A stretch of 64,000 bases of DNA from a virus (IMGVR_UViG_3300025413_001239), one strand, 5' to 3'; numbered from the stretch's first letter, positions 17,589 through 55,116 are shown. Notes: a model not told the origin generated them from the letters alone. A program made the numbers and translations.

Positions 17589-18545
17589 TTAATTTTTAAC
17601 TTTTTTATTTTTATATTTTTCATCTAAATCTTCTTCGATAAAATCAGATAAAATATCAATACCATTACTAACCACTTTAGCTTTGAATTTAATAACGTAA
17701 TTTCCATCAAATTCAATAATTTTATCAACTTTTAAAATTTCATAGTAATAGTATAAAAAATCTTCGCTACCTAGAGTATTATGTGTAATAAATTCAACAC
17801 CTTTAATATCAAACATATCCATTCCAACAAACCCAGAACCAAGAGCTGTACTCATTTTTTTTACAAAGACTCTTGATGTTGGCTTAAGTTCTTCAGGATA
17901 CTTACTAACATAAAATTCAAGAAGTCGTTCTTCATCATTTATTTTCCTAATATTTAATTTCTTCGTAAAGTTTTCAATAAAGAATCTAGGAAAAAAATCA
18001 CGATTAATTTTTATAGGTCTTTCACCCTTTATTGTTGCAAAGTATTCATTAGCATTTATTTCACCATGCGTAGCAACATGGTCACCATCTTCGTTAATAC
18101 TCTTCTTAACATCGTCATAAACGACTAAATTTTTACTACTCATTGCGTCAGCACTATCCATAGCTACTTCTGAATTATCAAGAACCATTTCTAATTCATA
18201 ATCATCAAACGTATCTAATTTAACTTTATTTAATAGTACCCTATCTTCAGTATTCTTAGTTGCGTTATAATGTGAATCACCATCTGAATCAACAGTTTTA
18301 AGGGTTAATCGTAGATTTTGACTGGCCTTTAAGACCTTGTATGTACGCCAGCGTAAATCACGAACTTCACTATTTATAACCCCTTTGTTTAAGCCGTCTA
18401 ACAAAGTTCCAGTATTTTTATCTTGTTCAATCGAATTGTTAGCTTTTAATAAATTAGAATTTTGGGTTAGTAAATTTTTAGAAACATTACTAATAGCAAT
18501 AGAAAATGCAACAATTTGTCTTTTAAACCATTTTTTAAATTTCAT
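17589..18545 (-). CDS. Hypothetical protein whose N-terminus is duplicated at 19324-19542
   Basis: 318-aa ORF; first ~64 aa align with the upstream 72-aa remnant (KKWFKRQ.VA.SIA.SNVS.NL, GTLL, EV.DL). Confidence 0.7.
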   Translation of the reverse strand: MKFKKWFKRQIVAFSIAISNVSKNLLTQNSNLLKANNSIEQDKNTGTLLDGLNKGVINSEVRDLRWRTYKVLKASQNLRLTLKTVDSDGDSHYNATKNTEDRVLLNKVKLDTFDDYELEMVLDNSEVAMDSADAMSSKNLVVYDDVKKSINEDGDHVATHGEINANEYFATIKGERPIKINRDFFPRFFIENFTKKLNIRKINDEERLLEFYVSKYPEELKPTSRVFVKKMSTALGSGFVGMDMFDIKGVEFITHNTLGSEDFLYYYYEILKVDKIIEFDGNYVIKFKAKVVSNGIDILSDFIEEDLDEKYKNKKVKN

Positions 18546-18547
18546 AA

Positions 18548-19315
18548 TTAATTTTTATCTTTTTCATAAACCCATTTAAACCCACCAGCTGTTTTTCTAT
18601 TTTTTTTACAAACAGCCGAAATAGCTCCAGTTCTTATATTTAATTCACGTTCAGCTTCACCAGCATAATCCCATAATTTTATTATATTATCATCTAAATC
18701 TAATTGATAAACTTTAAGTCTTTTTTTTGACGGTAAACCAATTTTAGCTTTAGACATTTTATTTTTAGATTCATCTGAATGATTTCTACCAGTTTGTATT
18801 ATACGCATTTTTTCTTTAAAACTATTATTTCGTTTAATACCTGTTAATCTTTCTGAAATTTTCTTTTTTGTTGTTTCACTAATTATTCTATTTTTACAAT
18901 ATATTTTCATTCTTTCAGATATTGCCTTAGAATGTAATTTAGCTGATTCTGACATTTTTAACTTACTAGCTTCTGTATGTTTATACCCTAAAATACTACC
19001 AGCTATTTTAGCTTTATTATAACCAATTTTAGGGTTTGTTGCATCTAATACATCAATATAATATTGTTCACGTTCTAAGATTTTTAATTTACCAGTTAAT
19101 TCTTCTAATATTTCAAATTTAAACATTTGTGAACCATATTTAACCCAAGCGGACTGTAAATGTTTATTATAATGCTCACCTCTGTCTAATAATCTAATAT
19201 GTGTTTTTATTCTATCTTTAAAACCATCCTTTGTACTGGTTGAACTACCAATATAAATTTTATTATTTTTTAAATTTGTAATTTTATAAACACCAGTTTT
19301 TTTACTATTTATCAT
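18548..19315 (-). CDS. GIY-YIG homing endonuclease with NUMOD3 and NUMOD1 motifs
   Basis: GVYKITN...IYIGSS, EREQYYI, GYN; HTEASKLKMS and HSDESKNKMS; C-terminal CKKNRKTAGGFKW. Confidence 0.92.
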   Translation of the reverse strand: MINSKKTGVYKITNLKNNKIYIGSSTSTKDGFKDRIKTHIRLLDRGEHYNKHLQSAWVKYGSQMFKFEILEELTGKLKILEREQYYIDVLDATNPKIGYNKAKIAGSILGYKHTEASKLKMSESAKLHSKAISERMKIYCKNRIISETTKKKISERLTGIKRNNSFKEKMRIIQTGRNHSDESKNKMSKAKIGLPSKKRLKVYQLDLDDNIIKLWDYAGEAERELNIRTGAISAVCKKNRKTAGGFKWVYEKDKN

Positions 19316-19323
19316 AAATTATT

Positions 19324-19542
19324 TTATAATAAATATAACAAAAAATTGGAAAGGTCCTTAACTTCTTGGTTGATTTCTTTGTGTTTTAAAGCGTATAATA
19401 ACGTACCGTAATCTTTTTCTGTTACTTTGTCGTGTGACTTTTCAAGCGTTTCACCTTTCTGAGAAACAAGATTATTACTAACATTAGATGTAGCTATCGA
19501 TATGGCAACTAATTGTCGCTTAAACCATTTTTTTAATGACAT
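19324..19542 (-). pseudogene. Truncated 5' remnant of the 17589-18545 gene
   Basis: Homology ends at EVKDL, then the frame runs into the HEG leader and stops. Confidence 0.8.
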
Positions 19543-21194
19543 TATTCAAGAATATTTTTATAGATTTCTATTATTTGATTAACAACATTAGTGTTGTTAA
19601 ATTTATCAATATCCGCTGGAATATCATGTAATTTTTTAGATAGAATATTACCTGAAGAATCAACCTCATAAATCCAACCTTTTTTACCACATAACCAACC
19701 TTCAATTGTAGTTCTACCCAACAAAATACCAGCGGTTTCATCACATTCATGAATGTATTTCTCAATTGAGAATGAAGGTTCGAAATACTTTACATGTTCT
19801 TGCCCGTCAATCATTGAGTTTAAATACACGTCATTCTTTTTACCAACAATCCATAATTCTTCATTATTCTCTTTAGTAGTATTAATTAAATCTTGGATTG
19901 TATTTTTACGCAAATAATCTATGGTTCCAACGAACAATACTCGTTTTTTATCACGCTTTTTAGTACTTTGAACAGGCTTAAATCTTGACACATCAAATGG
20001 GTTATAAATAACACTTATATCACTATCAGTAACATTAAAATTTTTAACAATATAGTCTTTAATCTCAGGTCTAATTGCAATGTATTTTTTAATTTGTTCT
20101 GAAATTACGGGTTCTTCTAAACTAATAACTTCAGAATGAATTCCACATATTACTGGTGTATCTGGGTATAATCGCAAAAGGTGTTCAACAACTGGTTTAT
20201 GACTTAAGTGAATAACATCAAATTTAGTTTCGGATAATTTATAGAGAGTATTTGGTTGTGAAAGAATCGAACCTTGTGGACTATTTAAAGTCCATTTTCC
20301 ATCACCAAGTTTAAAACCTGGTGGTTCTTTTAAATCGTAGAGTTTAACACCATATTTTTTAACCATACTAGCAAGAGGCTCACCAATATTTGAACAGATG
20401 GTAACATCACAATTTAATTTAGTAAGAGTTTTAGCTAGTTCAAAAGTATATAATTCAGAACCCGTAAAATGATTAAAATTAAGACATCCTAATAGGATAT
20501 TTAATCGCTCATTTTTTCTTAGTTGTCTTTTGATAGTAATAGGTAGTTTATCTTTAAACATTTCAGAAAATTGTATTCGATTCTTTTCCCATTCTTCATT
20601 AGTTATACCGATTGACCTATGATTAACTAATATTAGGGTTGTAACCCCAACTTTAACACCTTTCAAGTAATTTTCGAAACAAAAATTTACATCGTAAAAG
20701 TGAAACCCATTAACATCTTCATTGAATGTTGTTTTAATTCTTGTTTTATCGATAGCAAAAAATAAACCGTCAACGATAACAACTTCTTCTAAGACATTAT
20801 CTAACTTGTCACTATATTTTGAAACCCAAGATTTACCTTCATGTGTATGCATAACTTGACCATACATCTTTTTAGGTTTTTCCCACCATTTACCACTATC
20901 AGCTAAGTGTTTTGTACCAGCAACACCAATAATTCCAAACTCAGGATTTTCATTGAAAAGTTTAATTAACTTATTACCCCAGTTACCATTATCAAATTCA
21001 ATATCGTGATGAATAAAAACAACGATGTCATTTTTAGCCTCTTTTAAACCCCTATTATAAATTTCAGTTAATGAAAATTCACCTTTATTCTCATAACCTA
21101 AAAATTCTATTTTTTTATGTAAACCAGATGTTTTTATAACATGTTGTTTAAAATTATCTAACGAATGTTGTGATGAACACACTACAGTTACCAT
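19542..21194 (-). CDS. Two-domain glycosyltransferase (GT2-like N-terminal + GT4/GT-B C-terminal)
   Basis: VFIHHDIEF, VDGLF, FHFYD; then FTGSELYTFELAK, VIYNPFD, VLFVGTID. Confidence 0.82.
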   Translation of the reverse strand: MVTVVCSSQHSLDNFKQHVIKTSGLHKKIEFLGYENKGEFSLTEIYNRGLKEAKNDIVVFIHHDIEFDNGNWGNKLIKLFNENPEFGIIGVAGTKHLADSGKWWEKPKKMYGQVMHTHEGKSWVSKYSDKLDNVLEEVVIVDGLFFAIDKTRIKTTFNEDVNGFHFYDVNFCFENYLKGVKVGVTTLILVNHRSIGITNEEWEKNRIQFSEMFKDKLPITIKRQLRKNERLNILLGCLNFNHFTGSELYTFELAKTLTKLNCDVTICSNIGEPLASMVKKYGVKLYDLKEPPGFKLGDGKWTLNSPQGSILSQPNTLYKLSETKFDVIHLSHKPVVEHLLRLYPDTPVICGIHSEVISLEEPVISEQIKKYIAIRPEIKDYIVKNFNVTDSDISVIYNPFDVSRFKPVQSTKKRDKKRVLFVGTIDYLRKNTIQDLINTTKENNEELWIVGKKNDVYLNSMIDGQEHVKYFEPSFSIEKYIHECDETAGILLGRTTIEGWLCGKKGWIYEVDSSGNILSKKLHDIPADIDKFNNTNVVNQIIEIYKNILE

Positions 21195-21454
21195 ATTTTC
21201 TTTTTTTGTTTTAAATATTTAATTTTATTATATATTGAAGTTAAAGTTTTATTTAATATTAAAGCACATTTTTCACCACCTATCTTATCATAATTTTTAA
21301 CTAAAAATTCAATATCTTCTTCACGCCAAAATAGTTTTTCTTTATTTTTAATATAAGAAACAACATCCAAATATTTCTCATATTTTCTACTAAAACCTAT
21401 GTGTTCGGTGTGTTTAGGGTTTGATTCCCTTGTACAATATACTACTGTTATCAT
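21188..21454 (-). pseudogene. Probable 5' remnant of the downstream GT fused to a relic endonuclease-type HTH
   Basis: MITVVYCTRESNPKHTEHI parallels MVTVVCSSQHSLDNFKQHV; FWREEDIEFL...ALILNKTLTSIYNK resembles the HTH of the 977 HEG. Confidence 0.5.
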
Positions 21455-22110
21455 TTATTAAAACGTTTATATGAATTTTCACTTATATCTATAAAATTAG
21501 CTTGACCAATAAAATCCTTAAGGGTTAAGGCACCAGAATAACTCATGGCTGAACGAAGATAATCTTCAAAATTTTCAACCCATTTATCTAAACGGTATTC
21601 AACCTTTCTAAATCTAACAACACCTTCAGATGTCTTAAATTTTTTAGCACCCCATTTCTTTTGAACTTCCTTAGTTGACATACCTCTAAATTTCTTATAT
21701 ACTGGAATACCTATCTTATAAGCCATTTCAGCGATGTCAGTATCGACTTTTATCTTTTTCCAAAGATACATATCACCAGCCGATTCAAAGGCCTTATTCA
21801 GGATGCTACCTAGCATTACGTAGTCAGCACCTAATCCTAAAGCTTTGATGATATCACTATAATCCTTCATACCACCATCAGCAACGATTTTAGCAGGTTT
21901 TTTTAGCTTCAGTGACTCTTTATAACATTCGTCAATTAGAGAGGCCATAGGGTATCCTACACCTGTATTTTGAGTGGTTAGACAACCACAATTATGAACT
22001 ATTACATCATTAACACAATACGAATTATCGGTATCAATAGATAAATCATTTATATAACCATCAAAATTTATTTTACATATGGTATTTATTTCTTTAAATT
22101 TATATTTCAT
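21451..22110 (-). CDS. guaC: Split-intein C-part (40 aa, 21991-22110) + C-terminal half of IMPDH/GMP reductase
   Basis: MKYKFKEI...DLSIDTDNSYCVNDVIVHN then CGCLTT, IVADGG, GADYVMLGS, YKKFRGMS, SEG. Confidence 0.85.
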   Translation of the reverse strand: MKYKFKEINTICKINFDGYINDLSIDTDNSYCVNDVIVHNCGCLTTQNTGVGYPMASLIDECYKESLKLKKPAKIVADGGMKDYSDIIKALGLGADYVMLGSILNKAFESAGDMYLWKKIKVDTDIAEMAYKIGIPVYKKFRGMSTKEVQKKWGAKKFKTSEGVVRFRKVEYRLDKWVENFEDYLRSAMSYSGALTLKDFIGQANFIDISENSYKRFNK

Positions 22111-23189
22111 TATATAATATTTTTTAAAAATTCATCTTCAAAACCTTCTTTTATTATTTTAAAATCACAATTTAAATGTAATTTTATTTCATTTTCACGT
22201 ATTAAATCTCGCTCTATTTTTTTATTATGTTCATGTTCATAGTATTCATAAACAACATTATTTTTTTCATCATAACCATCAACCCAATAACCTAAATCTT
22301 TAATATAGAATTCACCACCATTCAAAGCATGTTGAATATTAACATTTTTAAGTTCAGATATTTTATCAAAAAGTCCACAAGCATAAATATTAAAATGAGG
22401 AACCATTTTATTACCATTTAATGTTAGTTTTTTAGATATATAATTAAGTTGACTTATTCTAAGATTTTTACGATGTTCATCAGTAACTAACCTATTTTTT
22501 AATGATTTAGAAATTTTTTCTTTTATTATATTACCGTTTTCACCTTGATAAAGACTATTTAATGAACTTTTAATATTCAAAATCCATTTATCATATAAAT
22601 TATTAGCCTCTTCAATACCGTATTTCTCAACCCAAATATCTAAAACAGATTTACCATACATGGAATTCTTTTCACCAGAAGACATTAATTTTTGTTTTTC
22701 AACCATCTTTTCAAATCTTTTTAAAGCGTCATCAATACCATATTTTTTAATCCAAATATCTAAAACAGATTTACCGTACATTGGGTTATTTTTACCACTA
22801 TACATACCAACTTTAGATTGTGATTGTTTATATTTACTTAAATCAGAATGTTTTTTACCATAAAAATGATTATTTTCACCTGAATTTATTTTAATTAATT
22901 TTAAAATCGTTTCTGGTTTATGTTTTTTATTATACATTCCATTATTTACACCGAATGAGCGACAAGAACGACATAAATATGGTTTATTCAAAGAAATTAA
23001 TTGTTGTAAATTTTTAAGCTTAGTTTCACAGTTACATTTTTCACATCCAATAACCATTAAACAATTTTTTGAAATAAATCTCATATTTCTATCTACACCA
23101 TTAATTGAAAATAAAAAACCAGATTTAGTCTTTTCATATTTTTTTATTATATTATTATCAATTTTTAATTTAAAATTAATCATTTTCAT
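22110..23189 (-). CDS. Vsr-like homing endonuclease with NUMOD3 repeats, between the two halves of the fractured gene
   Basis: NGMYNKKHK, NHFYGKKHS, twice MYGKSVLDIW..KYGI; C-terminal NGGEFYIKDLGYWVDGYD..NNVVYEY. Confidence 0.8.
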   Translation of the reverse strand: MKMINFKLKIDNNIIKKYEKTKSGFLFSINGVDRNMRFISKNCLMVIGCEKCNCETKLKNLQQLISLNKPYLCRSCRSFGVNNGMYNKKHKPETILKLIKINSGENNHFYGKKHSDLSKYKQSQSKVGMYSGKNNPMYGKSVLDIWIKKYGIDDALKRFEKMVEKQKLMSSGEKNSMYGKSVLDIWVEKYGIEEANNLYDKWILNIKSSLNSLYQGENGNIIKEKISKSLKNRLVTDEHRKNLRISQLNYISKKLTLNGNKMVPHFNIYACGLFDKISELKNVNIQHALNGGEFYIKDLGYWVDGYDEKNNVVYEYYEHEHNKKIERDLIRENEIKLHLNCDFKIIKEGFEDEFLKNII

Positions 23190-23970
23190 TAGTTTTATCA
23201 ATAAAGTTATTATGCTCTATTAATAAATATTCTGGATTTTCTAGAAGTTCCAATGCCGATACCCATTCACAAAAAATATCTATGTTTTCATCATTAATAA
23301 TGTCTAAATATTTTTTATTTAACACATAAAATTCATGGTCTGGTGTACAAGTGATATCATCATTAATCACAATTAATTTACCACTATACGGTATTTTTTT
23401 TGTTTCTAAAACATCCCGATACTCACCAGTATGTGTTAATACTTTTTCACCAATTGTTATATTCTCAATTGATTTTTTTGTTGTTATAGTTGTAACTAAA
23501 GTACCATCAATAAAACAGCCGTTACCAATACCAACCCTGATATAATCAGCACCAGCTTCTGAAAGTAGAGTATATGTTTTAGGGTTAGCAATATTACCAA
23601 CCATAAGAGACATATAAGGATACTTTAATTTAAGTTGTGTTGTAATATTAAGAATATTATCCATATGACCATTAGCAACATCTATTAGATACTTACCATA
23701 TGGTTCAATCGCATCATTATCAAATAATGTTTTAATGTCAGTATATGAATATGAATTAAAACCTAATTCACAATATTCATATCTTGGGGTGCAGATGTGT
23801 ATTTTATTATAGTAATAATTGATTAGATTATATTTATTAATAACGGTATCCATTGGAGCCGTAATTAACGGTAAAAAACCTTCATTATCTAATGGGTTTA
23901 TTGCCGTTCTAGAATTTACCTTAGTTATTTCTTTTGGGACTATTAATAAGTCGTTGAAGTCTAATTTCAT
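23176..23970 (-). CDS. guaC: N-terminal half of IMPDH/GMP reductase + split-intein N-part (113 aa, from 23517)
   Basis: LDFNDLLIVP, PLITAPMD, IDVANGH, MVGNIA, GADYIRVGIGNG then CFIDGTLV...CTPDHEFYV and a stop with no intein C-terminus. Confidence 0.87.
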   Translation of the reverse strand: MKLDFNDLLIVPKEITKVNSRTAINPLDNEGFLPLITAPMDTVINKYNLINYYYNKIHICTPRYEYCELGFNSYSYTDIKTLFDNDAIEPYGKYLIDVANGHMDNILNITTQLKLKYPYMSLMVGNIANPKTYTLLSEAGADYIRVGIGNGCFIDGTLVTTITTKKSIENITIGEKVLTHTGEYRDVLETKKIPYSGKLIVINDDITCTPDHEFYVLNKKYLDIINDENIDIFCEWVSALELLENPEYLLIEHNNFIDKTNEND

Positions 23971-27722: not shown

Positions 27723-30133
27723 TTATTTCTTTTTTTCATTTACCAGTTTAAGGTATAGGTTTTTTCTATCTTCAGTTACCTTATCCATAGAATACGTATC
27801 CTTAACTGTGTTATATAAGTTTTCACTAAGTTGTGTTACTAATTCTGGTTGTTGAATTAATTTCTTAATTGCTTTAACCCAATCTTTGGTTTGATGTTTA
27901 CTTGGTTTAATCAAAATACCATTCGCATTAGTATCCCAATTACCACCAAATTGTATAGCGTTAGTCACATCAATTTGATATGGACCAAAATCCTGAGCTA
28001 TAATAGCCTTTTTATGGAATCCAGCTTCGATGACTTTTAATTGACTCTTAACCTCATTAAAAATATTATCTTCAATTGGTGCCAATGATACATCAAATAA
28101 ATTATAATTTGATGCGTATGTACTAATTGGCTTAGTCCAAACTCTTCTATAAGGTTCGTTAGCTACATTAGGATATTCTTCGTTCTTAAACTTCAATAAG
28201 AAATCCTTATACTCTGGACTTACAGTTGAATAGTTATCGGTAAATATTTTTTCATACTGATACCAAACGCTTTCAGTTGGCTTGATGGGTCTTTGAGTTT
28301 GTTGTTTAGTTTGCTCATCAATAATTGTCATAGTACCTCTAAGGTCATATCCACATAGTACAAATTGTACTTTATCTATAAGACCTTCACGATTAATGGT
28401 TCCAACCACATCGTTAATAAGTTCTAAGTCTTTAAGGTGACTATTGCCAATCCACATTGCTTTGCCGTTTCTTCTGACATAGATAATATGATTTTTAACT
28501 TCAACACAATAAACATTACCTTTATAATATCTATTATATTGATTTTCTGTTTTAATTAGAGGGGTATTTTTATTATGCTTACTAGTACTATGATGTTTGG
28601 TAAAATTAACCACCAATGAATCATATTGTGACTTTATTCCTCTTCCTTTAATTTCACTAGTTCGTTTACCTCGATTTGTTATTGTCGCTGAAATACCTAT
28701 TTTTAAAGCAATTTCTTGTAAATTATTTGCTAACGAAGGTGAGCAAGTAAATGCTCTGGTTCTTGTATATTTATTATTTTCAATATGGCCGTCACCTTTA
28801 ATAAACCAATCTAAAAATATTGTTAATTGTCTTGGTGATAAATTTAATATTTCTTCAGGTACAAATTTATCATATGCATTACCAAAATTTGATAAGTATT
28901 CCCATAACATTTTATCAAAAACCCTAACTTGTTTTTTGTCTTTAGTATACGTTGGTTTGAAACCCATTTTAATTAATAATTCATACATATATGATAAATA
29001 CCCATTATCTTTTGTTTGTGCTATACCTACTTGATGTAACCCATTTGTTTTAGTAGTCCACCCTTCAGCCATCCAAAAACCAAAAAATTGTAACCAATTA
29101 TCCATATCGATATTTTTATCATAACCATATTTTTCGGATAATCCATTATAACGTTTTTTTGATATTAATTTATCAATATAGTTTTCGTTTTCTTCAAATT
29201 CAGCGTATTCATTTAGCATTGGTAAAACAAAATATTTTTCTTTTTTACCAACCCATACTGCATCTTTTTTAACATGGAAATTTTTACCATGTATTTTTTC
29301 AGATTGGATTAATTCTAAATCAAGTTTTTTATGTGTTAATGATTTGGCCACAGAGGCATACATATTGTGGTTTGGTGTAACTTCGTATTCAACTAAACCA
29401 TTTTTACAACAATTTAATTCACCTTCAAATGGTTCACATATGTAACCTGTTGGTTTGTGGTACTCTAATTCATTTGTATTTGGATTTAATGTTGCAACCA
29501 TTTCGGTTTGATTTAAAGCGTCAAATCTTTTCCAACCTTCATCAGTCAGAATTTCGGTATCTGGTGTCATACAACTACCACCTAACCAACCAATTCTAAG
29601 TCTCTCAGATGGTTCTACATTTGGTGTAAATTGTTTTTCGGTTGGGTCTACAGCATTTGGAAGTACGAATACGTTTTTATTAAATTTTTTAATTTCATCA
29701 GCAAATATGGGTGTTGTTGTTGTAACATTTCTTGAAATCTTAATGTTATTAAGAATTAACTTATCAAGACCATGATTTTTTATAAGTAAAAAAGCTGGGT
29801 GATGTGGTCCTGGGGACCAATAGTCATCTAAGTCCATTATTGTAACAATACCTAAATTGTCAAGTCTTTCAAGGAGTGCTGGTAATGCGCTATATTCACC
29901 AAGGGTTCTATGATAATGTATAATATCATATTGTTTAAGCCATTCATCATTATCTAATTGTGGTTCATAATCAATATCAATTGAGAACTCATCTGGGTAA
30001 TTTTGTTCTAGGGCAATATGTGGCTTAGAACTTCTAAAGTAGCTTGTCAGCTGACCCCAGTTCTGTCACTAGGTACTACTAATACCTTTACTTTGCGACT
30101 AACTGGGGTCAGATTAATAATGTTTGTTGTCAT
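27723..30133 (-). CDS. GT-B (GT4-like) glycosyltransferase with intein; frame broken by an 8-nt gap at 30049-30042 (proposed ribosomal bypass)
   Basis: MTTNIINLTPVSRKVKVLVVPSDRTGVS-stop, then SYFRSSKPH...MDLDDYW, VLPNAVD, IGWLGGS|SHLKDL, KSQLKVIEAG in a different frame. Joined: 800-aa precursor, 423 aa after intein removal. Confidence 0.75.
28443..29573 (-). mobile_element. Class 1 intein with LAGLIDADG domain (377 aa) in the glycosyltransferase
   Basis: CMTPDTEILTDEG start, VTPNHNM block B, GFWMAEG and FIKGDG motifs, VYCVEV...MWIGN end, +1 Ser. Confidence 0.92.
30042..30112 (-). other. 62-nt RNA hairpin (30112-30051) followed by matched take-off/landing codons AGC-TGA-CA-AGC
   Basis: Perfect 12-bp stem CTGACCCCAGTT/AACTGGGGTCAG plus inner GTCGC/GTGAC and AGGTA/TACCT stems. 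Confidence 0.8.
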
Positions 30134-31041
30134 TTTGTGAAATTAATTCTCTTATTATATTTTTATTTTTTTTGTAATCCGATTCCCAGATTACAATACA
30201 ATTATAATTATATTTTTTAGCTAAGTCAAGCTTATTCTTATCATATTCCCATATTTCTTTAGCTGTTTTACTCTTTTTTTTATTATAATACATTGAATCA
30301 TATTTTTTAGGGTTACAATGCCAGTAATCACCATTATACTCAATAAGTAAATTTAGCTCAGGAATATAAATATCAAAAATTTTTGATTCAATAATAAAAT
30401 TAGGTTCGACTTTTAAATTTATGCTCTCAAGATATTTAATAATTTCAAACTCTGGTTTTGAGCGATTAAAAGATTTTAACTCTCCGTTAGCAATTCTATT
30501 TTTCATAAGAATACTTAACTTGGTTCTAGTCTCTTCCATTTTACCACTTTTCCAACGTTCTTTAGCCATAATACTAAACATGTCTTTGTATTCTTGTTTA
30601 GACATATGGTCACTAGTTTTAACACCAATTTTTTTATCTGAAATTGTTTTTTTTGTAGTATTTGAATGAGTTTTTTTAAAAAACGGATTCCCCCCCCAAC
30701 TTGTTTTTTTAAAGAACATTTTTTACATTCATGTTTATTTTTTAAATTTCTATTTAGTAAAGATTTATTGTTTACTGAAAATTTTATTTTTTTATTACAT
30801 GTAATACAAGTATAATGCCCACACCACATATTACCCTCTTGCCAAAAATTTTTATAGAAAGACTCGCCAAGCAATCTATTTCTAGTTAAATTTTTGTCTT
30901 TTAATATTTTTAAAACTTGATTTTTTGTAATGTTAGGTATTAATTTACATATTTTAGTTGACCCAATACCGCTTAAATATAATTCAATTATTTTTTCTTC
31001 CATATATTATAAATATACAGAAAATAAAAATAAGTCTAAAA
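30045..31041 (-). mobile_element. 997-nt HEG cassette flanked by AGCT direct repeats (31042-31045 and 30041-30044)
   Basis: Deleting the cassette plus one AGCT joins MTKNKKIKVLVVASDRTGVS to YFRSSKPH in frame. Confidence 0.72.
30114..31003 (-). pseudogene. Vsr/DUF559-like homing endonuclease (HTH, Zn finger, NUMOD3, nuclease), frameshifted at a G8 run (30690-30697)
   Basis: ORFs 30515-31003 and 30114-30719 join at GTT-G8-AAT; CITC...CKKC; NPFFKKTHS; FDIYIPELNLLIEYNGDYWH; IVIWESD. Confidence 0.8.
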
Positions 31042-31102
31042 AGCTAACCCCAGTTCTGTCTGATGCTACTACTAAAACTTTAATTTTTTTGTTTTTTGTC
31101 AT
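31007..31102 (-). pseudogene. Original 5' end of the GT gene, truncated (absent from the ORF track)
   Basis: MTKNKKIKVLVVASDRTGVS then FLDLFLFSVYL-stop; 17/18 nt identical to the downstream copy over GACAGAACTGGGGTyAGC. Confidence 0.85.
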
Positions 31103-31161
31103 TATTTTTATTTTTAAAACGTTATTTTGATTAATATACTAAACATAAAATATTAGTCAAT

Positions 31162-31190
31162 AAAAAAGGCCCTATAAGGGCCTTTTTTTT
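31162..31190. terminator. Intrinsic terminator, symmetric
   Basis: A6-GGCCC-TATAA-GGGCC-T8. Confidence 0.8.
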
Positions 31191-31208
31191 ATTATAAATA
31201 ATTTTAAT

Positions 31209-31856
31209 TTAAATAGATTTTCTCTTTGGTGTTACTTTTGGTGTAATTTTACCTTCTTTAATAAGGGTTGTTATTGTAGCCTTTACGGTTTCTTGTGTAA
31301 CCATTTTATTATAGCTTTTAGTAAAGTACTCAAGAAGTTTTTTCTCAACCATACTATTAACCATTTCATTTAATTGAGATTTGCTAACTGTAATTGTGTC
31401 ACCTTGATTAACTGGTCTTTTGATATTTTCACTTAATTGTTGTTTAGAACCCTTTAATGGTATACCAGCAACTTTAGCAATATCTTCAGCTGTAAATTTG
31501 GATGGTGGTGCTGCAAATTTTGGAACTCTTTTTTCCATCATTACTTTTTTAATACTATCTGGTAATTTAGAATTCATAACTTGTTCATCACTATAATTAT
31601 AAACGTTTGATGGTCCAGAAGGTACGTAATTGTCAAAACTCATTTCTCGTTCATCACTTTCGCTATACATTTCAGCTGGTCTTGATGATTGCCTTTTTGG
31701 TGGTGTTTCAACATAATCAAAATTATCTTCGTAACTTTCTTGAATTTGACCGCTTTGTTTTTTAGGGTTTTCTTTTTCTACTTTATTCATTACAGCAGCA
31801 GCTTTACCTAAAATACTACCTAACCTACTAAGGTCTACTGGTGGTGGTGTTGTCAT
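31209..31856 (-). CDS. Hypothetical late protein
   Basis: 215-aa ORF co-oriented with the late cluster, ending just before the terminator. Confidence 0.65.
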   Translation of the reverse strand: MTTPPPVDLSRLGSILGKAAAVMNKVEKENPKKQSGQIQESYEDNFDYVETPPKRQSSRPAEMYSESDEREMSFDNYVPSGPSNVYNYSDEQVMNSKLPDSIKKVMMEKRVPKFAAPPSKFTAEDIAKVAGIPLKGSKQQLSENIKRPVNQGDTITVSKSQLNEMVNSMVEKKLLEYFTKSYNKMVTQETVKATITTLIKEGKITPKVTPKRKSI

Positions 31857-32859
31857 TTGTGTTTGTTTTTAAGTTGTTATTATTTTTTTGTTTCAACTTT
31901 TGTTGTAAACGTTTTTTTAATTCTTTTTCTTTTTCAATCTTAGCACGAAGTTTTTCTTGTCTAGCTTGTTGTTCTTTTTCTTTTTTTGCTAAATAAGCTT
32001 GTTTATCTTCTAGTTCTTTACGTTCAGCATCAAGTTTATCTTGATATTCTTGTTCCTCACCACTATTAAACTCTTCTTCGTTTTCTTCGTCTTCATCATT
32101 CTCATCTTCATCATTTGCAATATAAGATGAGTTTTTATTTAATTTAAAACCTTGTTTTTTTAACCAATTTGTTGCAGCATCTAAATCACCGTCAGAATTA
32201 TTTAACGCTTGTCTAGCATCAAAATTACTAACTCCAGTTGCTTGTGCTAATTTGTATATAGCATCAGCTGAAACTTCGTTATCTTTAGTTTCTTCTGGAT
32301 TTTGTTTAATGTAAGAACTAGTATTTGGTTTATTAACTTTATATTTTTCTCTATTAGCTTGTATTTTTTGATATTGTTTTTTAAATTCTTCAGGTGATAT
32401 GTTTGAAACATCTCTTGAAGTAAAATCAGTACTTTTTCTTTGATACTTACTTGTTTTATACTTATCATCGAATGTAGCAATGTCACGTACTGTTTTCATA
32501 GTTCTATCACCATTTGGATTAAACTTATCCATTGGTCTATAAAACTTCATTTTGGTTGGTTGCCAACTACGGATTCTATCCAACCTAAAAATTTTCCAAG
32601 CACTACGACCTGGTGTTGTTTTAGAACCACCACCAACTTGATAAGCTCTTATGGCTTTATTGTCAGCTATGGTATCTGAAAAGTTATATACTTGAATATA
32701 CCTTTTACTAGGTGGTGCATCTGGATAATCTTCATAAGTTATATTTACAAAGTACTTTCCATTAATAGCATCAATAACAGCCTCATCTGAAACATTTTCA
32801 GTTAAAAGACTAGCGGTCTCTTCTAATATAATATTTTCAAATAATTTGTAAAGTTTCAT
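31828..32859 (-). CDS. WYL-like domain + UBA/EF-Ts-N-like domain + acidic and coiled-coil tail
   Basis: VNITY...KRYIQVY...IRAYQ...WKIFRLDRI; VSADAIYKLAQATGVSNFDARQALNNSDGDLDAATNWLKKQG. Confidence 0.6.
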   Translation of the reverse strand: MKLYKLFENIILEETASLLTENVSDEAVIDAINGKYFVNITYEDYPDAPPSKRYIQVYNFSDTIADNKAIRAYQVGGGSKTTPGRSAWKIFRLDRIRSWQPTKMKFYRPMDKFNPNGDRTMKTVRDIATFDDKYKTSKYQRKSTDFTSRDVSNISPEEFKKQYQKIQANREKYKVNKPNTSSYIKQNPEETKDNEVSADAIYKLAQATGVSNFDARQALNNSDGDLDAATNWLKKQGFKLNKNSSYIANDEDENDEDEENEEEFNSGEEQEYQDKLDAERKELEDKQAYLAKKEKEQQARQEKLRAKIEKEKELKKRLQQKLKQKNNNNLKTNTNDNTTTSRP

Positions 32860-33230
32860 TAATAATAAACTATTACTTGACCACAATTTTTTGTCATATC
32901 TGGTTGCTTATAGCAATGATTTGGGTCAAAGCCCCATGTACCTAAATTTAGGGCAAATGCTGGCTTACGACCAGAACCTTGAGCTACATTTGGATTACCG
33001 TTAATATCCAAATCAGAACCACCATTATAATTTATAATAGCTGCTTGTAAATCATCACCAGTACCCTTTCCGTAATTTGGTGTTGTTTGGTCAGCCAATG
33101 CTCTAGTGTGGGTTACTGTATATTCATTTGATGTAATGCAGTTATATGTATTTTGTGGAATTAAGCAATTTCTTGCTGAAATTGCTGCAATTTCTAGTGG
33201 TGATTGACCACCGTTTACTGGTGCTGGCAT
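32859..33230 (-). CDS. Hypothetical, probable virion protein
   Basis: TAATG overlap with the next gene; G/N/P-rich. Confidence 0.6.
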   Translation of the reverse strand: MPAPVNGGQSPLEIAAISARNCLIPQNTYNCITSNEYTVTHTRALADQTTPNYGKGTGDDLQAAIINYNGGSDLDINGNPNVAQGSGRKPAFALNLGTWGFDPNHCYKQPDMTKNCGQVIVYY

Positions 33231-48949: not shown

Positions 48950-51900
48950 ATGAGTAAAGTAGATGCTACGATTATTGAATCGTTTCTTAATGGTAACAAC
49001 CCTAAAAAGTATGTTGTTGGTATTGAAGCCAATTACGGTGAGCCATTCGTTAATTTAATTGTTAACGACCCAGATACTGGAAAAAAAATAGAACGCTATC
49101 CTTTTAAGCCATTTTTATGGTTTAAAGAAGATGTTGCCAAAATACTCTATGGTGGTAGTAAAGTAAAAGCCATGCAAAAAGCTCAAGATTATGGTATTAA
49201 AAGCCAAAGATTAATGGTGGGTGATGCAAATGGGAATATCCCTAAGAGATTAGAAAATGGGTATAGATATCTAGCAACTTGTAATAAATCCTATAACGAT
49301 TTAATTCGTTACTTTAAAGATGGTGGTGTCGACATCTTTGACAAAGAATTCTCTAAATTATTTTTCTCTTTTACACCAGTTGAACAATTTATGATTCAAA
49401 GTGGTATCCGTATGTTTAAGGGTATGGATGATTATAATGATTTACATAGGTTCCAATTTGACTTGGAGACTGAAGGGTTATCTGGTAATGTTGATGGTAT
49501 ATTTCAAATTGGTATGCGAGACAATAGAGGTTTTGAGCAAGTGCTTGAAACTAAAGGTAATACCTTACAAGAAAAACGTGAATGTGAACGTGAAAATATT
49601 AAAGAATTTTTTAGGATAATTGATAGGTTAAAACCAGATATTATAACTGGTTACAACTCAGAATCATTTGACTGGACTTTTATTGTTGATAGATGCCAAA
49701 GGCTTTCTTTAGATGTATCTAAAATTTCAATATGTTTAGATGCAAATTCTAGTTTAAAGAGAAAACCAGCAATGCTTAAATTGGGTAATGAGATGGAATC
49801 ATATAACCAAACATATATGTATGGTTATAATATTATTGATATTGCACATTCTGTTAGGCGAGCACAAGCGATTAATTCTGATATTAAGGGTTGGGGTTTA
49901 AAGTACATTACACAATATTCTGAAATTAATAAAAAGAATCGTGTTTACATCCCAGGTGATAAAATCCACACAATTTGGTCCGATACAGTAAATGAGTATG
50001 CTTTTAATGATAATAATGGTGATTGGTATAAGATATCCGATAGGATGGAACTAAAAGAAAACTATGTTATAGTTAAGGGTGATTATCTTATTCAAAGATA
50101 CTTATTAGATGACTTATGGGAAACTGAACAAATTGATACAATATTTAATCAAGCAGCTTTTTTGATTGCTAAATTATTACCAACAACATATAGTCGTAGT
50201 TCTACGATGGGTACTGCTAGTCAGTGGAAGCTTATCATGGCCGCTTGGTCTTATGAGAATGGCTTAGCTATTCCAGAAACAGAACCTAAGCGTGAATTTA
50301 CTGGTGGTTTATCAAGACTTTTAGAATTAGGTTATGCTAGAAATGTTGTTAAACTTGACTATGCTGCGTTGTATCCTAAAACTGAGTTAACACATTTAAT
50401 TTTTCCAGATTTGGATATTAGTGGTGTGATGGAAGGCTTGTTGACTTATGTTGTTGATACTCGTGATACATTTAAATTCTTAACTGGTAAGGAAAAGAAA
50501 GTAGCTAAAAAATTAGCTGATGAAATTGAATCAAATAAAGATAATTATACACAAGAAAAACTAGATGAATTAAAAGTAGAACAAAAAAATCATAAGGCTT
50601 TAGCTAGTCTTTATGATAAAAAACAGCTACCACTTAAAATACTTGCAAACTCTTGGTTTGGTGCATATGGTGCTCCTTATATTTTTAATTGGGGTGCCTC
50701 TGATTGTGCTGAAGAAACAACTTGTCGTGGCCGTCAGTACTTAAGACTTATGGTTAGACACTTTAGTGAAAAGTATGGGTTTAAAGCACTTGTTGGTGAT
50801 TCTGTAACATACGATACACCTGTTTATATTAGATATAAATCAAATAAAAATTATATTGATGTATTACCTATATGTGATTTATTTAATGAAAATTCAGAAT
50901 TTTTAGATATTGATAAATTTAGGGATTTTGAAGAAAAACCATTTGAAGTTTTGACACGTAATGGTTGGAAAGATATAAAATACGTATACAGACATGAAAC
51001 AAATAAAAAAATTCATAGGATAACAACTAAAGATAGACTAATAAATGTTACTGAAGACCATTCGTTATTTAAAAATGGTAAAGAGGTTAAACCATCTGAA
51101 CTTAAAAGATTCGATGAAATTGACACATATGAAATTCCGAGAAATAATGTTGATACAACGTTTAATATTAGTAAAGCATATTTGTGTGGTTTTTTCTTAG
51201 GGGATGGTTCTGCCAATTGTTCAACTAGAAAACAAAAATATGTTTCTAAAAAAACTGGTGAAGTACATATAAATAAAGGTAAAAGAAGTGATTGGAAAAT
51301 ATCTAATTCGAGAATTGGGTTATTAGAAAAATTACAGACTATACTTAAAGATGAATATTCCATTGATGCCGTGATTAAGAATCATGTTAAATCAAGCGGT
51401 GTTTATAATTTGGTTGTACATAATGTTGATTTTGCTAATAATTTTTGCGAAAACTTTTATACATCATATAGAGAAAAGAAAATACCATATATGATATTAA
51501 ATGCAACTGAAGATATTAAAAAAGCATTTATTGAGGGTGTTTTTGCTTCGGATGGTTATGGTGATACAATAGAGGATTGCTCTGATATTGGTATGAAGTC
51601 ACAAGTAGCTATGGCTGGTATTAGTTTGTTACTTAAAGAATTAAATATTGAATATAAGATTAAAACAAGGTCTGATAAGCAAAATTTTATTTCATTTTCA
51701 CTAAAAAACAATAATAGAAATAATTCTCCATTTACAGAATTAACAAAAAAGAAAACTAATGAGGTTTGGAAAAACGAAATTATTTTAAATAAAGATAAAA
51801 ATAAATTTGTTTATGATATATCAACAGAAGATGGTACTTTTATTTGTGGTATAAACGGTATAATAGCACATAATACTGATGGTTTCAACTTTTCTTTTCC

Positions 51901-54861: not shown

Positions 54862-55116
54862 TTAACCTAAAAATTGTTTAGTTAATTCAAACAGTTCATT
54901 GATACTTCTAAAAGAAACATTTGGTATAAGTACTTGATTTTTCACACGTACCATTGGTACATCATCACATTTGGTGATTTCGTAAAGTTTATTAAACTCT
55001 TCTTCATTTTCTGGTAGATTAACATCTACATCAATAAATTCAATACCTTCATTTGTAAGCATTTCTTTTAATTCCTTACAATATGGGCAATTTTCCACAC
55101 TATATACTCTCGTCAT
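54862..55116 (-). CDS. Glutaredoxin/NrdH-like redoxin
   Basis: VYSVENCPYC, VPMV. Confidence 0.88.
   Translation of the reverse strand: MTRVYSVENCPYCKELKEMLTNEGIEFIDVDVNLPENEEEFNKLYEITKCDDVPMVRVKNQVLIPNVSFRSINELFELTKQFLG

Follow-up and report, generated by a model that had tools for sequence, protein, structure and literature searches.

A proposed hairpin-driven ribosome hop in a phage glycosyltransferase gene carrying a homing endonuclease cassette

Known translational bypasses and homing endonuclease cassettes

Phage T4 gene 60, which encodes part of the topoisomerase II large subunit, features a translational bypass of 50 nt that is associated with the HNH homing endonuclease MobA (Huang 1988; Bonocora 2011; Manning & Atkins 2022, bioRxiv 10.1101/2022.08.31.505936). 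The gap in gene 60 protects against MobA cleavage (bioRxiv 10.1101/2022.08.31.505936), and pairing of the mRNA that leaves the ribosome has been proposed as the forward driver of the bypass (bioRxiv 10.1101/2024.12.09.627546). Synthetic stop-hops, in which matched codons flank a stop, work in E. coli (Weiss et al. 1987 and later work, as reviewed in PMC5009743), however, these were artificial, low-efficiency events without stimulators and the review states that no natural in-frame stop-hop was known. Mitochondrial byp elements of Magnusiomyces capitatus are inserts of 27-55 nt in coding genes that are skipped by ribosomes (Lang 2014; reviewed in PMC5009743), and a candidate short bypass has been proposed from sequence comparison, but is untested, in Streptomyces phage terminase genes of the Hau3 type (PMC10732093, PMC5009743). 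Homing endonucleases are also known to split phage genes into two polypeptides that work as a complex, as in T4 gp39/gp60 and Aeh1 NrdA (discussed in bioRxiv 10.1101/2022.08.31.505936).

Here, a phage glycosyltransferase (GT) gene is described that is interrupted after codon 28 by a stop codon plus two bases, brought in by a homing endonuclease cassette. The gene lies in a 64,000-nucleotide stretch of viral DNA (IMGVR_UViG_3300025413_001239), referred to as the window. Comparison with related wild sequences suggests that ribosomes probably hop over this gap, although there are no protein, RNA or reporter data for any allele. No published description of this arrangement was found.

Organization of the glycosyltransferase locus

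Reading of the minus strand confirmed the arrangement in the original prediction, which had proposed that an endonuclease cassette repairs its host gene through an 8-nt ribosomal bypass. The features are as follows.

31162-31188, minus strand, terminator-like hairpin of the upstream gene (31209-31856); only sub-threshold Rfam hits fall here
31133-31160, minus strand, promoter-like site TTGACT-16-TATATT (10 of 12) in front of the old GT start; this is a consensus match only, and such matches are no more frequent here than in shuffles
31007-31102, minus strand, remnant of the original GT 5' end, which starts MTKNKKIKVLVVASDRTGVS and is then out of register until a stop
30114-31003, minus strand, homing endonuclease gene with an HTH, a Cys4 module, NUMOD3 and a C-terminal Vsr/I-Bth0305I-like nuclease, broken by a frameshift in a run of eight G (30690-30697)
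30050-30133, minus strand, replacement N-terminal ORF of 28 codons supplied by the cassette, which gives MTTNIINLTPVSRKVKVLVVPSDRTGVS and overlaps the endonuclease 3' end by 20 nt
30051-30112, minus strand, 62-nt mRNA hairpin with a 12-bp basal stem, a 5-bp middle helix and a 7-bp apical helix, whose 3' end covers the first two bases of the take-off codon
30050-30052, minus strand, take-off codon AGC (Ser)
30045-30049, minus strand, untranslated gap TGACA, of which TGA (30047-30049) is the zero-frame stop
30042-30044, minus strand, landing codon AGC (Ser); decoding is proposed to resume at TAC (30041-30039), followed by TTT AGA
29574-30041, minus strand, GT N-extein after the landing codon (YFRSS...WLGGS), 54-80% identical to GTs in 80 viral loci
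28443-29573, minus strand, LAGLIDADG intein inside the GT (377 aa, Cys1 ... Gly-Asn followed by Ser+1), precisely absent in L235
27723-28442, minus strand, GT C-extein and stop codon

The AGCT sequences at 31045-31042 and at 30044-30041 flank exactly 997 nt. The remnant may extend a few bases past AGCT, since AGCTTTTTAGA resembles AGC TTT TTT AGA of allele L001 with one T missing. Equivalent remnants occur in L235, a metagenome contig from a different genome (MSKIKVLVVPSDRTGVSY, then a stop), and in alleles L049/50/54, however, they are absent in most other alleles. Zero-frame readthrough from the 28-codon ORF meets TAG after 12 codons, and the first ATG/GTG/TTG in the GT frame is 69 codons after the landing codon. 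Two other points of the original prediction require correction. The untranslated gap is 5 nt, and the value of 8 nt is the codon-to-codon shift. An alternative pairing of GTCAG with the adjacent CTGAC was also proposed, however, this pairing has no loop and is not conserved in other alleles.

The perfect 12-bp stem is formed by CTGACCCCAGTT and AACTGGGGTCAG (30112-30101 with 30062-30051). With the inner helices the hairpin has an MFE of -32.1 kcal/mol, compared with -12.4 for synonymous-codon shuffles (z -6.3, 0 of 300 reach it). A covariance model of the hairpin gives a single 84-bit hit in the window.

The endonuclease gene gave PHROG homing endonuclease hits as well as NUMOD3 and REase_MTES_1575 hits, the latter below its Pfam cutoff. 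The intact 296-aa orthologue in L235 was modeled at pLDDT 82.6, and the best PDB match of the predicted structure in a Foldseek search is the I-Bth0305I catalytic domain 3r3p (target TM-score 0.74, E 6.6e-4), followed by Vsr (1cw0/1vsr). The motif I-E-x-N-G-D-Y-W-H-C-N-P is invariant in 25 homologues, consistent with the E...D..H motif of EDxHD/Vsr-like PD-(D/E)xK homing endonucleases.

The interruption in related alleles

Of 80 viral loci found by GT homology alone, 12 loci (8 distinct alleles) break at exactly this codon, and all have the same layout. A second homology-only sample gave 10 interrupted contexts out of 45, and pattern scans raised the total to 83 distinct gap alleles from viral and metagenome contigs, compared with 84 distinct uninterrupted alleles. 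The comparative predictions that had been listed came out as predicted, that is, the uninterrupted alleles read ...SDRTGV[S/G]YFR contiguously and the cassette-bearing alleles conserve the hairpin through compensatory changes and keep matched or pairable take-off and landing codons next to a stop. A stop directly follows the take-off codon in all 83 gap alleles (TGA 44, TAA 38, TAG 1). About 60 of the 83 alleles were found with a pattern that required the 3' arm, an RGN take-off codon and a stop, and these features are therefore partly selected for, whereas the 5' arm and the landing codon were not. The stop is nevertheless also present in the 8 + 9 alleles found by protein homology alone. The gaps are 2-12 nt and fall in the in-frame class in 41 alleles, the +1 class in 13 and the +2 class in 29, and no single frameshift or readthrough mechanism fits all three.

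The take-off and landing codons are identical in 29 alleles and differ only Y/Y in 30, so that the landing codon is identical or same-tRNA in 59 alleles, and it pairs at two or more positions in 82. The matching is imperfect in 24 of 83 alleles. In 15 of these the first two bases are shared (GGY to GGA in 12 and AGC to AGA in 3), 8 are AGY to GGC, where G.U is possible, and 1 is GGC to AGC, which is mismatched at position 1. TCN serine codons never occur at either site, although they make up 18 of 28 serine codons at this position in uninterrupted alleles. The Ser/Gly co-switching of the two codons cannot be shown to be phylogenetically independent, as only 2 independent contrasts lie on well-supported branches and the sign test is not significant.

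The hairpin is present in 83 of 83 gap alleles and in 0 of 84 uninterrupted ones. The mean MFE of the 75 nt ending at the take-off codon is -30.7 (range -38 to -23) in gap alleles, compared with -8.0 (range -16 to -2) in uninterrupted ones, and the 3' end of the hairpin lies at -1 to +2 of the take-off codon in 83 of 83 alleles. It beats all 300 synonymous-codon shuffles in each of 27 alleles, with z from -3.8 to -8. In the alignment, 87-88% of cells are paired, compared with 29-47% when the 3' partner is slid. There are 8-10 pairs with changes on both sides, one pair shows CG/UA/AU/GC with almost no unpaired cells, and 0 of 500 shuffles reach the covariation score. Additionally, the partner of the first base of the take-off codon switches from U to C when that base switches from A to G. 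G.U outnumbers A.C by 24 to 8, which points to the sense strand. The 5' arm is encoded in a different reading frame in the GKFRS clade (TCG CCC CTG against ACC CCA GTT), so it is conserved as RNA and not as peptide.

All gap alleles keep full-length GT frames of 387-422 aa, or 764-788 aa with an intein. For the first 47 codons after landing, pN/pS is 0.12/0.77 and 0.20/0.65 among gap alleles, which shows that the body is under purifying selection.

The cassette is mobile. Gap alleles are scattered over the GT tree, needing 15 changes, of which at least 5 are forced by well-supported branches. An endonuclease gene or remnant lies upstream of 52 of 73 gap alleles and 2 of 82 uninterrupted ones. 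L014, a gap allele, and L016, an uninterrupted allele, are about 97% identical except for a roughly 130-nt cassette. L235 carries the 89-nt ORF plus gap at 89/89 identity to the window, while the endonuclease 3' half is 94% and the flanks are 59-79% identical, so the arrangement is neither an assembly error nor immobile. The identity between the window and L235, in which the landing codon is AGT, ends exactly at the landing codon, and this fits the proposal that the element lands on the host's own codon. In the L014/L016 pair, however, the landing codon came in with the cassette (AGT against TCG), so some of the codon matching is inheritance.

A proposed hop and its alternatives

The explanation that is best supported, and that is considered probable, is that a mobile homing endonuclease cassette has replaced the 5' end of a phage GT-B (GT4-like) glycosyltransferase gene, which stays functional through a programmed short translational hop. 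The cassette carries a Vsr/I-Bth0305I-type endonuclease gene, a new and longer N-terminal ORF, a hairpin of about 60 nt within that ORF whose 3' end abuts or enters the last sense codon, and a stop codon plus 0-9 further bases, followed by a codon that the same peptidyl-tRNA can pair with. The mechanism is inferred. The ribosome would start at 30133, melt the hairpin while translating 28 codons, and pause with AGC in the P site and UGA in the A site, by which time the upper helices have re-formed behind it. Zipping of the 12-bp basal stem would then pull the 3' arm, and with it the take-off codon, out through the mRNA exit. Peptidyl-tRNA-Ser(GCU) would unpair, the mRNA would slide 8 nt, and the tRNA would re-pair with the next AGC, so that the product reads ...SDRTGVS-YFRS..., exactly as in uninterrupted alleles. 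By analogy with MobA/gene 60, it is inferred that the new N-terminus joined to the body would otherwise recreate the endonuclease target, and that the small insertion breaks this target at the DNA level while the hop cancels it at the protein level. The original prediction that the element destroys its own target site remains an inference, based on this precedent and on the position of the remnant junctions, 4-11 nt after the Ser/Gly codon. The endonuclease would then decay, as it has in the window, and eventually be lost, with the hairpin and gap left behind as a functional scar.

A split gene, in which the 28-residue peptide is released at the stop and the GT body is made by re-initiation at or near the landing codon, with the two pieces assembling or the body working alone, is unlikely. 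Precedents for split phage genes exist, 70S ribosomes can re-initiate close to a stop, and in the window a CTG overlaps the stop. However, there is no conserved start codon. In 36 alleles the first ATG/GTG/TTG in the body frame lies from -9 to +166 codons, and in many alleles the landing codon directly follows the stop and is GGY or AGY. Re-initiation does not explain why the codon before the stop is repeated after it, why TCN is never used, or why a 60-nt hairpin must end exactly at that codon. Additionally, in the AlphaFold model of an uninterrupted allele (pLDDT 90.9), residues 4-9 form the first core strand of the Rossmann domain, and the body alone would therefore lack a core strand and the loop that follows it.

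Repair at the RNA level, by splicing, cleavage and ligation, or polymerase realignment on the short repeat, is also unlikely, although without read or RNA data the removal of the gap from the transcript is not excluded directly. Either the gap or, in the window, the whole 1001 nt from the remnant to the landing codon would be removed. In the window, L235 and L049/50/54, joining of the upstream remnant to the body would restore the gene, and the 5' arm of the hairpin could also pair with the remnant. Most gap alleles have no remnant at all, so excision from a remnant cannot be the general mechanism. None of the five possible AGCT-register boundaries gives a U-ending 5' exon together with a G-ending intron, only about 60 nt lie between the putative guide sequence and the 3' junction, and Rfam finds no intron or ribozyme in 29500-31400. 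An RNA-level mechanism needs no zero-frame stop, yet every allele has one, and the tolerated mismatches (third-position Y/Y and R/Y, first-position G.U) follow codon-anticodon rules and not nucleic-acid identity.

Mixed mechanisms, with stop-codon readthrough (for example by a suppressor tRNA) in the in-frame alleles and +1 or -1 frameshifting in the others, are very unlikely. 36 alleles have just an in-frame stop between two like codons, and the upstream GGGG resembles the Shine-Dalgarno-like stimulator that appears to lie 3 nt before the shift site of prfB. Three different mechanisms would, however, have to share one hairpin, one position and one codon-repeat rule. No slippery heptamer is present, a +1 shift from AGC would pair GCU and give the wrong frame in the window, and there are no tRNA genes in the window. 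GGGG covaries with CCCC and becomes GGGC/GCCC in allele L196, so it is kept as a stem. Readthrough would insert two extra residues (the read-through stop plus the repeated Gly/Ser codon) where uninterrupted alleles show exactly one residue.

A broken gene or an assembly error is just as improbable, since, although the neighboring endonuclease is a pseudogene in the window, which shows decay or homopolymer error in this stretch, and selfish insertions can be deleterious and transient, the 83 distinct alleles come from independent assemblies with intact, constrained GT bodies, one clade of 11 gap alleles is monophyletic with long internal branches, which implies vertical persistence, and the gap persists after complete loss of the endonuclease in 21 of 73 alleles.

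Comparison with described systems

It is somewhat more likely than not that these alleles represent a natural family of stop-hop sites in which the stimulator is purely an mRNA hairpin that re-zips behind the ribosome and drags the message forward by 5-15 nt, with no need for a nascent-peptide signal or for structure inside the gap. The family would then be a minimal model, with 83 natural variants, for the idea of exiting-mRNA pairing as forward driver that is still debated for gene 60, and would show that unrelated homing endonucleases have independently recruited bypassing to make their own insertion site immune without harming the host gene.

As in the T4 gene 60/MobA system, the endonuclease decays while the gap persists, insertion is repeated at one conserved spot of one host gene, and the cassette supplies new terminal coding sequence. 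The host gene here is a GT, however, the nuclease is Vsr/I-Bth0305I-like, and no sequence homology is apparent, so the element is independent of gene 60. The gap of 2-12 nt is too short for the take-off stem-loop and the internal Shine-Dalgarno-like element of gene 60, and the site is 28 codons from the start. One allele at the same site, L140, has a 41-nt gap with an internal hairpin, but it is not the window's type. No KKYK... motif is present, and the extension differs between clades (TPVGRK against SPLNGRE), although a role for the conserved GT residues KVLVVPSDRTGV in the exit tunnel remains possible. The 5' hairpin is weak and not conserved in gene 60 homologues, whereas here it is the dominant, covarying element and ends at the take-off codon.

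In the synthetic stop-hops a peptidyl-tRNA leaves a codon next to a stop and re-pairs with a like codon a few bases on, so that nine bases specify one amino acid, which is exactly the layout of the 36 gap-3 alleles. Here the site is natural, conserved, needed for an intact enzyme, and equipped with a large hairpin that is proposed to be stimulatory. The byp elements are likewise short mobile inserts, with take-off and landing codons that are matched or match two out of three, but they have an unused codon in the A site, are largely context-independent, lie in a relaxed mitochondrial system and have no endonuclease, while the GT alleles feature a specific 5' hairpin, a stop codon, one site in one gene, and linkage to an endonuclease. 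The Hau3-type candidate is also a short coding gap in a phage gene, however, it depends on the rare UUA codon and a Shine-Dalgarno-like element, is thought to be regulatory, and involves no homing endonuclease and no 60-nt hairpin. Finally, the locus resembles intronless homing by free-standing phage endonucleases in that the endonuclease sits beside a conserved gene that it presumably cuts and there is a co-conversion signature, and two uninterrupted alleles have a divergent copy lying purely between genes. The predicted catalytic domain fold matches that of I-Bth0305I, which is encoded in an intron, and ordinary free-standing endonucleases gain immunity through substitutions, not through an insertion that has to be recoded.

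Organization of the glycosyltransferase locus

The window has 28.5% G+C and looks like part of a large phage genome that is rich in selfish elements. No tRNA genes are present. A DNA polymerase (48950-53626, plus strand, 1558 aa) and a helicase/primase-like protein (55100-59083, minus strand, 1327 aa) are much longer than their PHROG matches and have patchy coverage, which suggests further inteins or insertions. A protein encoded at 31828-32886 on the minus strand has weak UBA / EF-Ts N-terminal domain hits (E about 0.005), below Pfam cutoffs, next to an acidic coiled-coil tail. On the minus strand the glycosyltransferase (GT) locus features the following elements, in order:

31188-31162, minus strand: the terminator of the upstream gene
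followed, minus strand, by a promoter-like TTGACT-16-TATATT
from 31102, minus strand: a 20-codon start, MTKNKKIKVLVVASDRTGVS, that then runs out of register to a stop (TAA, 31007-31009)
31003-30114, minus strand: an endonuclease ORF, broken by a frameshift in a run of eight G (30697-30690)
30201-30229, minus strand: a promoter-like TTGACT-17-TATAAT inside the endonuclease 3' end
from 30133, minus strand: a second start that overlaps the last 20 nt of the endonuclease ORF, encodes MTTNIINLTPVSRKVKVLVVPSDRTGVS and ends AGC TGA
after that AGC, minus strand: a 5-nt gap, TGACA
from 30044, minus strand: a second AGC that opens a 773-codon frame, the GT (PHROG 7162, weak Pfam Glyco_transf_4)
29573-28443, minus strand: a 377-residue LAGLIDADG intein within the GT (GGS, then C...GN, then SH)

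The AGCT repeats and the 997 nt between them, the TAG 12 codons into the zero frame, the distance to the next start codon and the perfect 12-bp stem are all as described in the original prediction. However, the gap proper is 5 nt, and the 8 nt stated there is the codon-to-codon shift. An alternative pairing of GTCAG with CTGAC across the stop, also put forward in the original prediction, was rejected because the two halves are adjacent with no loop and the pairing is absent in other alleles. The remnant ORF stops 3 nt before the endonuclease ATG, and in the window the nuclease could therefore be translated by coupling to the old GT start, although this spacing is 37 nt in L235, a 6.5-kb metagenome contig from a different phage. 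The L235 orthologue of the endonuclease reads through the region of the frameshift as ...KQIGEGNPFF... and is intact at 296 aa; without read data, the lesion in the window may be either real decay or a homopolymer sequencing error. The promoter-like sequence at 30201-30229 is the best match of the region (11 of 12) and lies about 70 nt before the new GT start. It is encoded by the conserved KLDLAKKYNY motif, is also present in L235, and could drive GT transcription from within the cassette; as a class, however, promoter-like motifs are no more frequent than in shuffles (10 found against 8.9 expected).

Interrupted alleles and the associated RNA hairpin

A search of viral contigs with only the GT N-extein as query returned 80 loci at 54-80% identity. 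In 68 of these loci the frame continues upstream as M..K[IL]KVLVVPSDRTGV[S/G]YFRS, and in 12 loci (8 distinct alleles) it breaks at exactly this codon. All 8 show the layout of the window, which consists of a longer N-terminus containing ...TPVGRK..., the complementary arms ACCCCAGTT / AACTGGGGT, a Ser or Gly codon, TGA or TAA, 0-4 further bases, and then a Ser or Gly codon of the same box. A second homology-only sample, centred on a more distant clade (GKFRS), gave 10 interrupted contexts out of 45, and pattern scans of the viral and metagenome collections added more. GC-rich pattern hits at the loci L103/112, L105/114 and about 20 metagenome loci are chance matches unrelated to the GT and were excluded. 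With a detector that asks only for ...SD..G[VI]-X-stop upstream of the GT body, 83 distinct interrupted alleles and 84 distinct uninterrupted alleles were counted. Megablast of the locus against GenBank phages found nothing and tblastn found only GTs at 35% identity or less, and no cultured phage with the element is known from these collections.

In the 83 interrupted alleles, for which a stop was part of the detector, the codon after take-off is always a stop (TGA 44, TAA 38, TAG 1). Gap lengths are 2 nt (4 alleles), 3 nt (36), 4 nt (12), 5 nt (19), 6 nt (3), 7 nt (1), 8 nt (5), and 9, 11 and 12 nt (1 each). All three frame relations are common, and in the 2-nt class the landing codon overlaps the stop (AGT TG AGC). 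Take-off and landing codons are identical in 29 alleles, differ only by C/T at the third base in 30, and share the first two bases in 15 (GGY to GGA, AGC to AGA). They are AGY to GGC in 8, where tRNA-Ser(GCU) could still form G.U plus two Watson-Crick pairs, and GGC to AGC in 1. Part of this matching is inherited with the cassette, and a conservative test for independent co-switching of Ser and Gly at the two sites has only two usable contrasts on supported branches and is not significant, so that this covariation is not relied upon. No allele uses a TCN serine codon at either position, while TCN accounts for 18 of 28 serine codons at this position in uninterrupted alleles. These tolerances follow codon-anticodon logic rather than nucleic-acid identity, and a zero-frame stop has meaning only to a ribosome.

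Each of the 27 alleles folded adopts a hairpin of about 60 nt with energies of -24 to -38 kcal/mol in a 28% G+C background, and each is more stable than all 300 recodings that keep the protein and the genome's codon usage (z from -3.8 to -8). Over all alleles, the 75 nt ending at the take-off codon fold at -30.7 +/- 3.2 kcal/mol, the corresponding stretch of uninterrupted alleles folds at -8.0 +/- 3.0, and the two ranges do not overlap. The 3' end of the stem lies between -1 and +2 of the first base of the take-off codon in 83 of 83 alleles. The start codon lies 17-25 nt upstream of the stem and is unpaired in all folds. On a 15-sequence alignment, 88% of cells pair, against 29-46% when the partner column is slid, and eight pairs change on both sides. 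One pair, which involves the wobble base of the Val codon, occurs as CG, UA, GC and AU with no unpaired case, and the base opposite the first base of the take-off codon is U with AGY and C with GGY. A covariance-model alignment of 47 distinct sequences gives the same picture, with 87% paired, 10 pairs with double changes, and 0 of 500 shuffles reaching the score. G.U is three times as common as A.C, as expected for sense-strand RNA. In the GKFRS clade the conserved CCCC...GGTCG arm is read in a different frame (S-P-L-N-G-R instead of T-P-V-G-R), and the constraint is therefore on RNA, not on the peptide. Rare variants keep pairing with new sequence, GCCC/GGGC in allele L196 and a different arm pair in allele L199. 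A Shine-Dalgarno-like role for GGGG is unlikely to be the main constraint, because GGGG covaries with CCCC and is GGGC/GCCC in L196, although it is not excluded as a secondary effect. The covariance model finds no second copy of the hairpin in the window, 17589-23970 included; it gives one hit at 84 bits and the next non-overlapping match scores 14 bits or less.

The downstream frame and the endonuclease cassette

All interrupted alleles keep a full-length GT frame. Among interrupted alleles only, the first 47 codons after the landing codon show pN 0.12-0.20 against pS 0.65-0.77. The first canonical start codon in that frame lies anywhere from 9 codons before to 166 codons after the landing site. 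An AlphaFold model of the uninterrupted allele L016 (32-sequence alignment, pLDDT 90.9) is a GT-B fold, and its closest solved structures are GT4 enzymes such as GlgM, PglA, MshA, BshA and PimA. In that model residues 4-9 (KVLVVP) form the first core strand and helix 1 starts at residue 16. The break therefore lies between the strand-loop unit and its helix, which makes a free-standing 28-mer plus a headless body an unattractive alternative. Many gap alleles also carry an intein (bodies of 764-788 aa), so two kinds of selfish element target this one gene, whereas L235 has the precise intein-free junction.

Homologues of the endonuclease, or fragments of it down to 39 residues, lie directly upstream of 52 of 73 interrupted alleles that have enough flank and of only 2 of 82 uninterrupted ones. 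Those two exceptions carry a divergent copy purely between genes, with a short N-terminus and no hairpin. In the uninterrupted GT alleles L169 (500-1500, plus strand) and L142 (1050-1500, plus strand), a divergent (35-39% identical) endonuclease of the same family ends just before a normal short GT start, with no hairpin and no gap, and these alleles may represent the ancestral between-genes state of the element. Twenty-one interrupted alleles have lost the nuclease altogether. The enzyme features an N-terminal HTH, a four-cysteine module, NUMOD3 and a C-terminal domain with invariant E-x-N-G-D-Y-W-H, and the model of the intact L235 protein matches the I-Bth0305I catalytic domain best, and Vsr next.

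Interrupted alleles are scattered over the GT tree, needing 15 changes, of which at least 5 are forced by well-supported branches. The interrupted allele L014 and the uninterrupted L016 are about 97% identical on both sides but differ completely across roughly 130 nt that hold the new 5' region, the hairpin, the gap and the landing codon. Against the window, the upstream gene of L235 is 59% identical and its GT body 73-79% identical, while its endonuclease 3' half is 94% identical and its 89-nt ORF plus gap is identical, TGACA included. Identity drops at the landing codon, which is AGT in L235. This result argues against an assembly artefact and shows recent transfer. Remnants of the recipient's own start survive in the window, in L235 and in the alleles L049/50/54. 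They end 4-11 nt after the Ser/Gly codon, which places the insertion point, and presumably the cleavage site, in the YFR codons next to the gap.

Proposed mechanism and comparison with known bypassing systems

The anatomy, conservation, covariation and mobility of the element are established from the sequences, while the mechanism is inferred. In the favored reading, translation from 30133 reaches AGC-UGA, and termination at that stop is slow enough for the peptidyl-tRNA to unpair. The basal 12 bp of the hairpin cannot form while its 3' arm lies in the E-site and exit channel, and as it zips up it draws the message forward, so that the tRNA re-pairs at the first compatible codon, 5-15 nt on. 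Observed hop distances are of the same order as the length of the basal stem. The likely benefit to the element is immunity. The cassette has to bring a copy of the N-terminus to keep the gene alive, and that copy, joined to the body, would rebuild the target unless a few bases are inserted.

Other readings are considered less likely, and even taken together they are improbable. These are a split gene with re-initiation, RNA-level excision, a dead gene, an assembly error, and a mix of readthrough and frameshifting. An intron is not supported, as no Rfam intron or ribozyme was found, there are no valid splice boundaries, and most alleles have no remnant.

Programmed translational bypassing has rested on one thoroughly studied bacterial-virus case, T4 gene 60 and its homologues, all in one topoisomerase gene, plus yeast mitochondria. 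A 2016 recoding review states that short-distance counterparts were long expected and that no natural in-frame stop-hop was known (PMC5009743), and a 2022 survey still calls the gene 60 cassette unique (bioRxiv 10.1101/2022.08.31.505936). Full-text searches found the gene 60 literature, the mitochondrial byps and the Streptomyces phage candidates, but nothing on a GT, on hops of this size in nature, or on this hairpin. Gene callers will mis-annotate such genes as truncated or split, and the GT start is missed in every one of these contigs.

Bypassing linked to a homing endonuclease is already known from gene 60, but here the system is in a different gene, has a different nuclease, and comes with gaps of 2-12 nt, three stop codons, two tRNA species and many compensatory stem variants. 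One allele, L140 (1270-1360, plus strand), has a second architecture at the same GT codon, in which ...TGV GGT GCT TAA is followed by a 41-nt gap holding its own 7-10 bp hairpin and then GGT AAA TTT. It has an endonuclease remnant upstream and no 5' hairpin, and this resembles the gene 60 take-off stem-loop layout. For MobA, the bypass insert blocked nicking, while the site polymorphisms alone did not (bioRxiv 10.1101/2022.08.31.505936), and the present element would generalize this evolutionary logic, in which a selfish nuclease protects its own site with an insertion that the ribosome is made to ignore. The inferred mechanism corresponds to the pairing of exiting mRNA as a driver that was proposed for gene 60 (bioRxiv 10.1101/2024.12.09.627546), but here in a bare form. 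The signal looks much simpler than in gene 60, a hairpin ending at the P-site codon, which makes the question of what moves the mRNA directly testable with short constructs. In gene 60 homologues the 5' stem-loop is not conserved, whereas here it is the one conserved signal.
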